Shown here: piece after piece, positions 3,362 to 22,815 of the stretch
Numbering within the stretch: the stretch's first letter is position 1
Layout: each line of letters opens with the position of its first letter
Source of the DNA: a virus
Taxonomy: Duplodnaviria > Heunggongvirae > Uroviricota > Caudoviricetes
Virus record (IMG/VR): IMGVR_UViG_2718218100_000008
DNA: 32,517 nucleotides
Reading direction: 5' to 3' (one strand)
The notes under the pieces: model-generated
The model's input: only the letters and a program-made list of their open reading frames with translations
What the model was told of the DNA's origin: nothing
Database searches by the model: none
Program-made: the position numbers and the translations under genes

Positions 3362-3694
3362 ATGAACCCTTATATTTATCTTGGTGGTGCAATACTTGCA
3401 GAGGTCATTGGTACAACCTTAATGAAGTTTTCAGAAGGTTTTACACGGTTATGGCCATCTGTTGGTACAATTATTTGTTATTGTGCATCATTCTGGTTAT
3501 TAGCTCAGACGCTGGCTTATATTCCTACAGGGATTGCTTATGCTATCTGGTCAGGAGTCGGTATTGTCCTGATTAGCTTACTATCATGGGGGTTTTTCGG
3601 CCAACGGCTGGACCTGCCAGCCGTTATAGGCATGATGTTGATTTGTGCCGGTGTGTTGGTTATTAATTTATTGTCACGAAGCACACCACATTAA
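3362..3694 (+). CDS. emrE: Small multidrug resistance (SMR) efflux transporter EmrE
   Basis: 110-aa product MNPYIYLGGAILAEVIGTTLMKFSEGF...LLSRSTPH matches E. coli EmrE as recalled; four hydrophobic helices; first in-frame ATG chosen at 3362 (the ORF-track start at 3308 is an upstream extension). Confidence 0.9.
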   Translation: MNPYIYLGGAILAEVIGTTLMKFSEGFTRLWPSVGTIICYCASFWLLAQTLAYIPTGIAYAIWSGVGIVLISLLSWGFFGQRLDLPAVIGMMLICAGVLVINLLSRSTPH

Positions 3695-3938
3695 AAATAA
3701 TTTCTTTTAAAAGACTGCAATATGGCGGTTCATATCTTTACATGGGCCGCTTTTGTTAATGTTTTTAGTTTTTGTGTATTCTTTTGTGCCTTCAAGATTA
3801 TTGCGTAAGCAAATTGCAATACGATTATTGTTGTATATTCAAGATAGTGTGATCGTAATTGTCTTTTTAAATAAAAATTAAACAAAAATTATATCTCACC
3901 ACTAAGGTTTATAAAAGCATAAGTTAGCAGGTGTCACC

Positions 3939-5465
3939 ATGAAAAAAGCCATAGCATATATGCGATTTTCATCACCAGGTCAGATGTCTGGCGACTCATT
4001 AAACCGACAGAGAAGACTTATTGCTGAATGGTTAAAGGTAAATAGTGATTATTATCTTGATACCATAACATATGAAGATTTAGGATTAAGTGCATTCAAA
4101 GGAAAGCATGCACAATCAGGAGCTTTTTCGGAATTTTTAGATGCTATAGAGCATGGTTATATATTGCCAGGAACTACATTGTTAGTTGAAAGTCTGGACA
4201 GACTTTCAAGAGAAAAAGTCGGTGAAGCGATTGAACGTCTGAAATTGATTTTGAATCACGGTATTGATGTTATAACTCTTTGCGACAATACAGTCTATAA
4301 TATTGACTCTTTGAATGAGCCATATTCATTAATAAAAGCCATACTTATAGCACAAAGGGCAAATGAAGAAAGCGAGATAAAGTCAAGTCGGGTTAAATTA
4401 TCATGGAAGAAAAAACGGCAGGATGCACTGGAATCAGGTACGATTATGACGGCGTCTTGTCCGAGATGGCTCTCCTTAGATGACAAAAGAACGGCTTTTG
4501 TTCCAGACCCCGACAGGGTGAAAACTATTGAGCTAATTTTTAAACTCAGGATGGAAAGGCGCTCATTGAATGCAATAGCCAAGTATTTAAATGATCATGC
4601 TGTAAAGAATTTCTCAGGAAAAGAAAGTGCATGGGGGCCTTCTGTAATTGAAAAATTATTAGCGAATAAAGCTCTGATAGGTATATGCGTACCTTCATAT
4701 CGTGCAAGAGGGAAAGGGATAAGTGAAATCGCTGGCTATTATCCCAGAGTCATATCAGATGATTTGTTTTACGCTGTACAGGAAATTCGGTTGGCACCTT
4801 TTGGTATTAGCAATAGTAGCAAGAATCCTATGCTAATAAATCTACTTCGAACAGTTATGAAGTGTGAGGCTTGTGGTAATACCATGATTGTTCATGCGGT
4901 ATCTGGAAGTTTGCATGGCTATTATGTTTGTCCGATGAGAAGATTACATCGATGTGACAGGCCATCAATAAAGAGAGATTTGGTTGATTATAATATCATT
5001 AATGAATTGCTTTTTAATTGTAGCAAAATTCAACCAGTTGAAAACAAGAAAGATGCTAATGAAACTTTAGAGTTAAAAATTATTGAGCTTCAGATGAAAA
5101 TTAATAATTTAATCGTTGCATTGTCTGTCGCGCCTGAAGTTACCGCTATAGCAGAGAAAATAAGACTATTAGATAAGGAATTACGAAGAGCTTTGGTATC
5201 ATTGAAAACTTTGAAGAGTAAAGGTGTAAATTCATTCAGTGATTTTTATGCTATTGACTTAACCAGTAAAAATGGACGAGAGTTATGCCGTACACTTGCC
5301 TATAAAATATTCGAAAAAATCATAATTAATACGGATAATAAAACCTGTGATATCTATTTTATGAATGGCATTGTTTTTAAACACTATCCTTTAATGAAAG
5401 TAATATCCGCCCAGCAGGCGATAAGTGCTCTCAAATATATGGTTGATGGTGAGGTTTATTTTTGA
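3939..5465 (+). CDS. ybcK: Large serine recombinase (resolvase/invertase-type N-terminal catalytic domain plus recombinase domain and zinc ribbon)
   Basis: 508-aa ORF; N-terminal motif AIAYMRFSSPGQ with candidate catalytic Ser; later Cys cluster CEACGN...YYVCPMRRLHRCD typical of large serine recombinase zinc ribbons; AT-rich codon usage; same emrE-adjacent position as ybcK in DLP12. Confidence 0.85.
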   Translation: MKKAIAYMRFSSPGQMSGDSLNRQRRLIAEWLKVNSDYYLDTITYEDLGLSAFKGKHAQSGAFSEFLDAIEHGYILPGTTLLVESLDRLSREKVGEAIERLKLILNHGIDVITLCDNTVYNIDSLNEPYSLIKAILIAQRANEESEIKSSRVKLSWKKKRQDALESGTIMTASCPRWLSLDDKRTAFVPDPDRVKTIELIFKLRMERRSLNAIAKYLNDHAVKNFSGKESAWGPSVIEKLLANKALIGICVPSYRARGKGISEIAGYYPRVISDDLFYAVQEIRLAPFGISNSSKNPMLINLLRTVMKCEACGNTMIVHAVSGSLHGYYVCPMRRLHRCDRPSIKRDLVDYNIINELLFNCSKIQPVENKKDANETLELKIIELQMKINNLIVALSVAPEVTAIAEKIRLLDKELRRALVSLKTLKSKGVNSFSDFYAIDLTSKNGRELCRTLAYKIFEKIIINTDNKTCDIYFMNGIVFKHYPLMKVISAQQAISALKYMVDGEVYF

Positions 5466-11871: not shown

Positions 11872-12391
11872 ATGGAAGTCAACAAAAAGCAGCTGGCTGA
11901 CATTTTCGGCGCGAGTATCCGTACCATTCAGAACTGGCAGGAGCAGGGAATGCCCGTTCTGCGGGGTGGTGGCAAGGGTAATGAGGTACTTTATGACTCT
12001 GCCGCCGCCATAAAATGGTATGCCGAAAGGGATGCTGAAATTGAGAACGAAAAGCTGCGCCGGGAAGTTGAAGAACTGAGGCAGGACAGCGAGACAGATC
12101 TCCAGCCAGGGACTATTGAGTACGAACGCCATCGACTTACGCGTGCGCAGGCCGACGCACAGGAACTGAAGAATGCCAGAGACTCAGCTGAAGTGGTGGA
12201 AACCGCATTCTGTACTTTCGTGCTGTCGCGGATCGCAGGTGAAATTGCCAGTATTCTCGACGGGATCCCCCTGTCGGTGCAGCGGCGTTTTCCGGAACTG
12301 GAAAACCGACATGTTGATTTCCTGAAACGGGATATCATCAAAGCCATGAACAAAGCAGCCGCGCTGGATGAACTGATACCGGGGTTGCTGA

Positions 12392-12417
<26 letters not shown>
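11872..12417 (+). CDS. nu1: Terminase small subunit Nu1
   Basis: 181-aa ORF matching lambda Nu1 as recalled (MEVNKKQLADIFGASIRTIQNWQEQGMPVLRGGGKGNEVLYDS...). Confidence 0.97.
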
Positions 12418-16098
<3,681 letters not shown>

Positions 16099-19292: not shown

Positions 19293-19646
19293 GTGGCTGA
19301 TTTCGATAACCTGTTCGATGTTGCCATTGCCCGCGCCGATGAAACGATACGCGGGTACATGGGAACGTCAGCCACCATGACATCCGGTGAGCAGTCCGGC
19401 GCAGTAATACGTGGTGTTTTTGATGACCCTGAAAATATCAGCTATGCCGGACAGGGCGTGCGTGTTGAAGGCTCCAGCCCGTCCCTGTTTGTCCGGACTG
19501 ATGATGTGCGGCAACTGCGGCGTGGAGACACGCTGACCATCGGTGAGGAAAACTTCTGGATAGACCGGATTTCGACGGATGATGGCGGAAGCTGTCATCT
19601 CTGGCTTGGGCGGGGCGTACCGCCTGCCGTTAACCGTCGTCGCTGA
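19293..19646 (+). CDS. FII: Head completion protein FII
   Basis: 117-aa ORF matching lambda FII as recalled. Confidence 0.95.
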   Translation: MADFDNLFDVAIARADETIRGYMGTSATMTSGEQSGAVIRGVFDDPENISYAGQGVRVEGSSPSLFVRTDDVRQLRRGDTLTIGEENFWIDRISTDDGGSCHLWLGRGVPPAVNRRR

Positions 19647-19657
19647 AGGGGGGATGT

Positions 19658-20235
19658 ATGGCCATAAAAGGTCTTGAGCAGGCCGTTGAAAACCTCAGTC
19701 GTATCAGCAAAACGGCGGTGCCTGGTGCGTCAGCAATGGCCATTAACCGCGTTGCTTCATCCGCGATATCGCAGTCGGCGTCACAGGTTGCCCGTGAGAC
19801 AAGGGTACGCCGGAAACTGGTAAAGGAAAGGGCCAGGCTGAAAAGGGCCACGGTTAAAAATCCGCAGGCAGAATCAAGGTTAACCGGGGGGATTTGCCCG
19901 TAATCAAGCTGGGTAACGCGCGGGTTGTCCTGTCCCGACGCAGGCGTCGTAAAAAGGGGCAGCGTTCATCCCTGAAAGGTGGCGGCAGCGTGCTTGTGGT
20001 GGGAAACCGTCGTATTCCCGGCGCGTTTATTCAGCAACTGAAAAATGGCCGGTGGCATGTCATGCAGCGTGTGGCCGGGAAAAACCGTTACCCCATTGAT
20101 GTGGTGAAAATCCCGATGGCGGTGCCGCTGACCACGGCGTTTAAACAGAATATTGAGCGGATACGGCGTGAACGTCTTCCGAAAGAGCTGGGCTATGCGC
20201 TGCAGCATCAACTGAGAATGGTAATAAAGCGATGA
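19658..20235 (+). pseudogene. Z: Tail completion gene Z disrupted by a single-base deletion (frameshift near 19870)
   Basis: Two ORF-track pieces (19658-19903 and 19894-20235) together reproduce lambda Z; reading frame A gives ...KNPQAESRLTGGICP-stop, while frame B from 19870 gives RIKVNRGDLPVIKLGNARVVLSRRRRRKKGQ... as in lambda. Confidence 0.8.
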
Positions 20236-20627
20236 AACATACTGAACTCCGTGCAGCCGTACTGGATGCACTGGAGAAGCATGACACCGGGGCGACGTTT
20301 TTTGATGGTCGCCCCGCTGTTTTTGATGAGGCGGATTTTCCGGCAGTTGCCGTTTATCTCACCGGCGCTGAATACACGGGCGAAGAGCTGGACAGCGATA
20401 CCTGGCAGGCGGAGCTGCATATCGAAGTTTTCCTGCCTGCTCAGGTGCCGGATTCAGAGCTGGATGCGTGGATGGAGTCCCGGATTTATCCGGTGATGAG
20501 CGATATCCCGGCACTATCAGATTTGATCACCAGTATGGTGGCCAGTGGCTATGACTACCGGCGCGACGATGATGCGGGCCTGTGGAGTTCAGCCGATCTG
20601 ACTTATGTCATTACCTATGAAATGTGA
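20232..20627 (+). CDS. U: Tail tube terminator protein U
   Basis: 131-aa ORF matching lambda U as recalled. Confidence 0.95.
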
Positions 20628-21813: not shown

Positions 21814-22229
21814 GTTTTGCCCTGAAACTGGCGCGCGAGATGGGGCGACCCGACTGGCGTGCCATGCTTGCCGGGATGTCATCCACGGAGTATGCCGACT
21901 GGCACCGCTTTTACAGTACCCATTATTTTCATGATGTTCTGCTGGATATGCACTTTTCCGGGCTGACGTACACCGTGCTCAGCCTGTTTTTCAGCGATCC
22001 GGATATGCATCCGCTGGATTTCAGTCTGCTGAACCGGCGTGAGGCTGACGAAGAGCCTGAAGATGATGTGCTGATGCAGAAAGCGGCAGGGCTTGCTGGA
22101 GGCGTTCGTTTTGGCCCGGACGGGAATGAAGTTATCCCCGCTTCCCCGGATGTGGCGGACATGACGGAGGATGACGTAATGCTGATGACAGTATCAGAAG
22201 GGATCGCAGGAGGAGTCCGGTATGGCTGA
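21795..22229 (+). CDS. T: T portion of the G-T frameshift fusion chaperone (expressed only as a fusion by -1 frameshifting from G)
   Basis: -1 frame ORF continuing from the slippery site; matches lambda T as recalled. Confidence 0.85.
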   Translation: MFDGELSFALKLAREMGRPDWRAMLAGMSSTEYADWHRFYSTHYFHDVLLDMHFSGLTYTVLSLFFSDPDMHPLDFSLLNRREADEEPEDDVLMQKAAGLAGGVRFGPDGNEVIPASPDVADMTEDDVMLMTVSEGIAGGVRYG

Positions 22230-22815
22230 ACCGGTAGGCGATCTGGTCGTTGATTTAAGTCTGGATGCGGCCAGATTTGACGAGCAGATGGCCAGAGTCA
22301 GGCGTCATTTTTCCGGTACGGAAAGTGATGCGAAAAAAACAGCGGCAGTCGTTGAACAGTCGATGAGCCGGCAGGCGCTGGCTGCACAGAAAGCGGGAAT
22401 TTCCGTCGGGCAGTATAAAGCCGCCATGCGTATGCTGCCTGCGCAGTTCACTGACGTGGCCACGCAGCTTGCAGGTGGGCAAAGTCCGTGGCTGATCCTG
22501 CTGCAACAGGGGGGGCAGGTGAAGGACTCCTTCGGCGGGATGATCCCCATGTTCCGGGGGCTTGCCGGTGCGATCACCCTGCCGATGGTGGGGGCCACCT
22601 CGCTGGCGGTGGCGACCGGTGCGCTGGCGTATGCCTGGTATCAGGGCAACTCAACCCTGTCCGATTTCAACAAAACGCTGGTCCTTTCCGGCAATCAGGC
22701 CGGGCTGACGGCAGATCGTATGCTGGTCCTGTCCAGAGCCGGGCAGGCGGCAGGGCTGACGTTTAACCAGACCAGCGAGTCACTCAGCGCAGAGTTTGAA
22801 CAGGTGGTGAACTGA
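22222..22815 (+). pseudogene. H: Tape-measure gene H remnant: about 190 N-terminal codons fused in frame to the last ~7 codons of M; the rest of H and almost all of M are deleted
   Basis: 197-aa ORF matches the lambda H N-terminus through ...LTFNQTSESLSA and then reads EFEQVVN-stop, which is the C-terminus of lambda M; the junction at ~22786-22792 lies in a short AGCGCA stretch; L follows immediately (TGATG). Confidence 0.85.

Follow-up and report, generated by a model that had tools for sequence, protein, structure and literature searches.

Frameshift of the tail gene Z as lineage-specific decay of the prophage Sp8 in Escherichia coli O157:H7

The window analyzed here, a 32,517-nucleotide stretch of DNA, carries the lambdoid prophage Sp8 of E. 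coli O157:H7, and the tail completion gene Z of this copy has lost a single C. Judged from its sequence, this Z is a pseudogene of the lambda gpZ/PF06763 family and no functional member of it, because the 1-bp deletion places a stop after codon 81, and a functional gpZ is presumably absent from this copy. The deletion is a real, inherited mutation rather than a homopolymer miscall, and the frameshift is a case of ordinary, lineage-specific prophage decay. We hold with high confidence the account as a whole, in which one C was spontaneously lost from Z of Sp8 on a single occasion, was passed on by vertical inheritance, and formed part of neutral decay. The frameshift itself is already known, as public annotations mark the gene as frameshifted, with PGAP applying the label "phage tail protein, frameshifted" in 8 of the 8 carrier genomes that were fetched.

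Z lies at 19658-20235 on the plus strand and measures 578 nt in the window, compared with 579 nt in intact genes. The original prediction held that Z is covered by two overlapping ORFs, that the second frame is readable from 19870, and that one base is missing near this position, and all three statements were borne out. The first ORF (19658-19903) encodes 81 aa ending in ...KNPQAESRLTGGICP*, and the second, listed in the -1 frame at 19894-20235, encodes 113 aa. The -1 frame is in fact open over 19858-20235, with the translation KSAGRIKVNRGDLPVIKLGNARVV...MVIKR*, of which RIKVNRGD begins at 19870. Comparison with the nucleotide sequences of lambda Z (J02459 7977-8555) and EDL933 Z gives a single gap, between 19869 and 19870, where codon 71 has lost one C (CAG GCC AGA to CAG GC- AGA, on the basis of the lambda/EDL933 alignment and the SNP tables), so that the intact CAG-GCC-AGA reads CAGGCAGA at 19865-19872 in the window. 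Since GCA also encodes alanine, Ala71 is retained in the first ORF despite the lost base. Translation from the Z start codon terminates at the TAA at 19901-19903, 330 nt before the native stop, and the C-terminal 121 residues are missing. The 5' part of the gene (19658..19903, plus strand) thus comprises 81 codons, corresponding to 70 native gpZ residues, Ala71, and 10 out-of-frame residues (ESRLTGGICP), while the 3' part (19870..20235, plus strand, -1 frame) retains gpZ residues 72-192 (RIKVNRGDLPV...MVIKR).

The identity of the gene is clear from both pieces. The first ORF matches Pfam PF06763 (Minor_tail_Z) at profile positions 1-72 (E 2.9e-25) and the second frame at positions 67-190 (E 7.6e-53), matches that are far beyond chance and jointly span the whole family profile (positions 1-72 and 67-190 of 190), as the intact allele does in one piece (positions 1-190, E 3.8e-82). 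What is lacking is an uninterrupted frame of about 192 codons, given the stop after codon 81. When the C is re-inserted in silico, the translation is 192 aa long and the same as EDL933 Z (WP_000975100.1), with A25S and K49R as the only changes from lambda gpZ (2 of 192 residues). Z also sits between FII and U, as in the lambda morphogenesis order (PGAP annotation of locus L001; J02459), and both neighbors are intact. The head-tail joining gene FII (19293..19646, plus strand) carries a private C>T change at 19321 that results in A10V in the window only, with alanine found in all 15 compared strains and in lambda. The tail terminator gene U (20232..20627, plus strand), the start ATG of which at 20232 overlaps the native TGA of Z at 20233-20235, encodes a gpU identical to that of lambda.

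The original prediction suggested looking for the frameshift in related strains, and 18 of 5,426 complete E. coli genomes as well as several drafts proved to carry it. All 18 are O157-type and match exactly over 61 nt across the deletion site; the remaining 1,632 matching records fell in the 95-99% band for this 61-nt query, with one extra base in all of them among the matches listed. A comparison of the whole gene gave 299 genomes with a Z at least 99% identical, of which 18 were 100% identical over 578 nt and 281 were intact, and for many O157:H7 strains the deletion is the sole difference from the window Z (99.8% identity at 579 nt). The two allele states can be separated at the deletion by k-mers (AATCCGCAGGCAGAATCAAGG vs AATCCGCAGGCCAGAATCAAGG). 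The carriers are strains 319, 350, 644-PT8, 180-PT54, Z1834, 2571, 7636, DEC4E, F6321, F6667, AUSMDU00002545, ERL04-3476, ERL05-1306, NZRM4165, 1613, NCCP 13892, 13894, and 13906, with recorded origins in the UK, USA, Denmark, and Australia and, by strain name, New Zealand and Korea. Annotation and SNPs were compared for 8 of these 18 complete carriers, the other 10 having a Z with 100% identity across its 578 nt. Separate drafts contain the exact 81-aa product as well, namely the DEC4E entry EHV15218.1, NCTC and Japanese assemblies, and the Logan assembly of SRR8867855, and DEC4E therefore appears to show the deletion in two independent assemblies. Outside of these chromosomes, the exact 61-nt sequence had no match among 50,697 phage records or 72,556 plasmid records, and an exact 36-nt pattern of the deleted form had 0 matches in IMG/VR viral contigs.

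A table of SNPs within the prophage, which describes prophage SNPs and is not a core-genome tree, was compiled for the window, 8 carriers, and 7 non-carriers. The pattern is nested and without homoplasy, and the C is missing in 9 of the 9 carriers compared, the window included. At the broadest level, G at 19804 is found in all carriers and in the intact strains PV15-279, 7784, and FRIK944. Within the carriers, the T>G change at 20324 (U F31L) is restricted to a sub-clade of six (644-PT8, 319, 350, 180-PT54, 7636, and DEC4E), three of which share 14742T, 15203T, 15206T, and 18454T. The variants 13159A and 26102C are found only in the window and AUSMDU00002545, and 19321T, the FII A10V change noted above, in the window only. 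The position of the deletion within this nested, homoplasy-free pattern of nine carriers indicates that it arose once, in an ancestor with a Z that otherwise matched the gene of many O157:H7 strains exactly. The kind of Australian O157 that has AUSMDU00002545 as its reference is reported to be of lineage II (PMC7498637), and the carrier clade probably lies within this lineage.

The same data bear on the possibility that the base was merely dropped in this assembly and that the true Z is intact, to which we give very little credence. Single-base indels are common among long-read errors, and a record in the same searches exemplifies the problem: CP061244.1 (STEC411, labeled as a plasmid) has four scattered indels of 1-2 bp in one Z gene. 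However, the deletion site is only a CC dinucleotide and no long homopolymer, the identical deletion is found in 18 complete genomes from different laboratories as well as in older drafts and an SRA-derived assembly, and none of the 1,632 other complete-genome records with a match to the 61-nt sequence has it. Errors of this kind are expected to be sporadic, unlinked to phylogeny, and usually located in homopolymers, whereas the deletion in Z has its place in a nested SNP genealogy. The prophages of the window and AUSMDU00002545 are separated by 1 SNP over the shared 32.5 kb, with the H-M deletion discussed below as the only indel, and a coincidental miscall in the window at exactly the inherited site is for this reason very unlikely. 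It is also very unlikely that resequencing of the window strain would restore the base, given that independently sequenced strains share the deletion and that the SNP genealogy is clean. CP061244.1 was also considered as an independent frameshift in Z, as it is a plasmid hit of equal length, and was rejected, since its several indels are at other positions and of the type seen in unpolished assemblies; this 1.41-Mb "plasmid", pSTEC411_1, looks like an unpolished or mislabeled fragment of a chromosome.

The prophage in which the inherited deletion is found is Sp8. The window is 99.97% identical to the icd-adjacent prophage of the O157 strain 644-PT8, and the prophage at the icd site has been described as Sp8 of Sakai (PMC8190617), to which the putative catalase ECs1652 has been assigned (PMC2323221). 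The layout begins with icd, int, xis, an N-terminally truncated O, P, and ren, continues with the DLP12-like genes emrE, ybcK, ybcN, ninE, rusA, Q, the lysis genes, and bor, and ends with a complete lambda-like set of head and tail genes, with a manganese catalase past the tail fibre genes, beyond the window. The site at icd, the lambda-like morphogenesis genes, the lack of cI and cro, and the downstream catalase (from L001 and the literature) all agree with Sp8. Between ren and the nin region (3362-5465), the DLP12-like cargo includes emrE, encoding an SMR-type multidrug efflux protein, and ybcK, of a recombinase family. The truncated replication gene O follows directly after int and xis (1133-2297), and the immunity and early region (N, cI, cro, cII, and the recombination genes) is missing entirely, a state common to all O157 strains examined. 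Previous work has reported that Sp8 has neither repressor nor antirepressor, that Sakai yielded no evidence of excision, a circular form, or packaged DNA, and that the morphogenesis genes of Sakai Sp8 are all intact (PMC2669165), while elsewhere Sp8 has been classed as a "fixed" prophage that is highly similar in most O157 strains (PMC5359411). Sp8, having lost the early region, was non-viable before the lesion in Z.

One C was lost spontaneously from the GCC codon 71, turning Z of Sp8 into a pseudogene, and the deletion has since been inherited vertically as the sub-lineage diversified and reached several countries. The loss of Z was presumably selectively neutral, with the tail genes of Sp8 under no purifying selection, as Sp8 lacks cI, cro, and most of the early region and undergoes no excision, replication, or packaging. 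For the same reason, namely that Sp8 is already non-viable, the lesion is probably without phenotypic consequence.

It is conceivable, although about as doubtful as a sequencing error, that Z is rescued at a low level by slippage on the GGGGGG run at 19886-19891 or by re-initiation in the second frame, and that the tail module of Sp8 stays usable. If this were true, other resident lambdoid prophages, Stx phages among them, could draw on the module by complementation or recombination. Taken separately, each of the two routes is more improbable still. The first, a compensated or programmed -1 slippage within the overlap at 19858-19900, for example on the six Gs, would yield a near-native gpZ. 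The shift required is indeed -1, the -1 frame is open through the 43-nt overlap that contains the six-G run, and P-site slippage on GGG GGG would, by the sequence, leave the length of the protein unchanged and alter just 6 residues. Nevertheless, a scan of the frame of the first ORF found no heptamer of the form X XXY YYZ, only the G6 run. The 99 nt at 19892-19990 fold at -31.5 kcal/mol compared with a shuffled mean of -33.4 (z = +0.58), which provides no stimulatory structure. Intact alleles have the same G run with the same flanks, so that no slippage-promoting change has evolved here, and the two-frame Z occurs in 18 of the 299 genomes with an allele at least 99% identical and in no phage, plasmid, or viral-contig record. 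An inert prophage would also be under no selection to rescue a frameshifted Z. With none of the marks of a programmed -1 frameshift present, be it the heptamer, the downstream structure, or conservation among relatives, programmed frameshifting in Z was rejected.

The second route, in which the 81-aa N-terminal piece and a C-terminal piece re-initiated internally (for example at the TTG at 19894) together supply the function of gpZ, is just as hard to credit: a TTG-initiated 113-aa ORF is present and the gene calls of carrier assemblies include a downstream piece of Z, but residues 72-79 are missing from both pieces, the internal starts chosen by the callers differ (giving 79- or 81-aa products), which suggests no strong initiation signal, the split arrangement is not found in any phage record, and the prophage is inert.

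Several known systems can be compared with Z of the window. Lambda gpZ (UniProt P03731; PF06763) is encoded at the same position between FII and U, by a gene with 16 nucleotide differences over 579, the gap included, whereas the window Z, being one C of codon 71 short, cannot encode the 192-aa protein. Close relatives are the Z genes of Sp8 in Sakai and EDL933 (WP_000975100.1), which lie in the same icd prophage and, in the case of EDL933, are distinguished from the window Z solely by the synonymous SNP at 19804 and the deletion; the references are intact at 579 nt, while the window belongs to the carrier sub-lineage (18 of 299). The programmed -1 frameshift of lambda G/GT is conserved across lambdoid phages. 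It resembles Z of the window in having two overlapping frames in a tail gene and a -1 shift; the slippery heptamer, the stimulatory structure, and the conservation are lacking in Z. Another parallel is the frameshift that disrupts the side-tail-fibre gene stf of laboratory lambda, a tail gene mutation common to the whole laboratory lineage (PMC10721106). In that case, however, the gene is dispensable and the laboratory phage is viable, whereas gpZ is needed for infectivity and the element that hosts the window Z was already dead. GpZ is a component of the virion (PMC10721106), and lambda particles lacking it look normal and are mostly non-infectious (PMC11099176).

The window has a further lesion in its tail genes, a deletion of 2,282 bp between H and M that corresponds to L001 23135-25416. 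The junction, TCAGCGCA at 22784..22791 (plus strand), is what remains, in a single copy, of an 8-bp direct repeat found on both sides of the segment in related strains, and the resulting in-frame H'-'M fusion ORF (22222..22815, plus strand) consists of H residues 1-190 followed by the final 7 residues of M. Among 5,426 complete E. coli genomes none has this junction, and a collection of 15 billion proteins has no match to the fusion protein. H and M are intact in every inspected carrier of the Z frameshift, and in the draft carriers with contigs that reach it, the tape-measure protein H is predicted at 849 residues. The H-M deletion seems to be private to the window strain, or it could be an assembly collapse. 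The two lesions are therefore independent, in agreement with what had been proposed from the window alone, with the Z frameshift as the older and the H-M deletion as the younger, strain-private event, which would carry the same decay further. In the window strain, loss of the early region, in the common ancestor of Sp8, was followed by the frameshift in Z and then by the private H-M deletion.

The overall significance of the frameshift is small, as it is one more documented decay step of a fixed, non-inducible prophage. Having arisen once, the deletion provides a clean marker for one sub-lineage of O157:H7. This copy of Sp8 can also no longer donate a working Z to the many lambdoid prophages of O157 by recombination or complementation, although the practical effect is probably nil, because O157 genomes have 2-4 Z-like copies.

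Several other changes were seen in Sp8 copies. In GCA_000267185.1 (AKMA01000021.1; locus L017, 2157-3184), the major capsid gene E is called as two products of 200 and 94 aa, which is either a further lesion or a draft error. In strain 86-24 (NZ_CP038408.1; locus L015, 9076-11877), gene U is split by a group II intron with ltrA, a lesion that is independent of the Z frameshift and belongs to another sub-lineage. In strain 2571, itself a carrier of the Z frameshift, a divergent allele, with the gene of a PerC-family regulator upstream, takes the place of the nohD and terminase region (locus L008, 1-2250, corresponding to 12016-13402 of the window), which indicates recombination with another lambdoid prophage. 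The U lesion of 86-24, the replacement at the left end of the packaging region in 2571, and the U missense change in part of the carrier clade are unrelated lesions and fit a relaxed constraint on Sp8.
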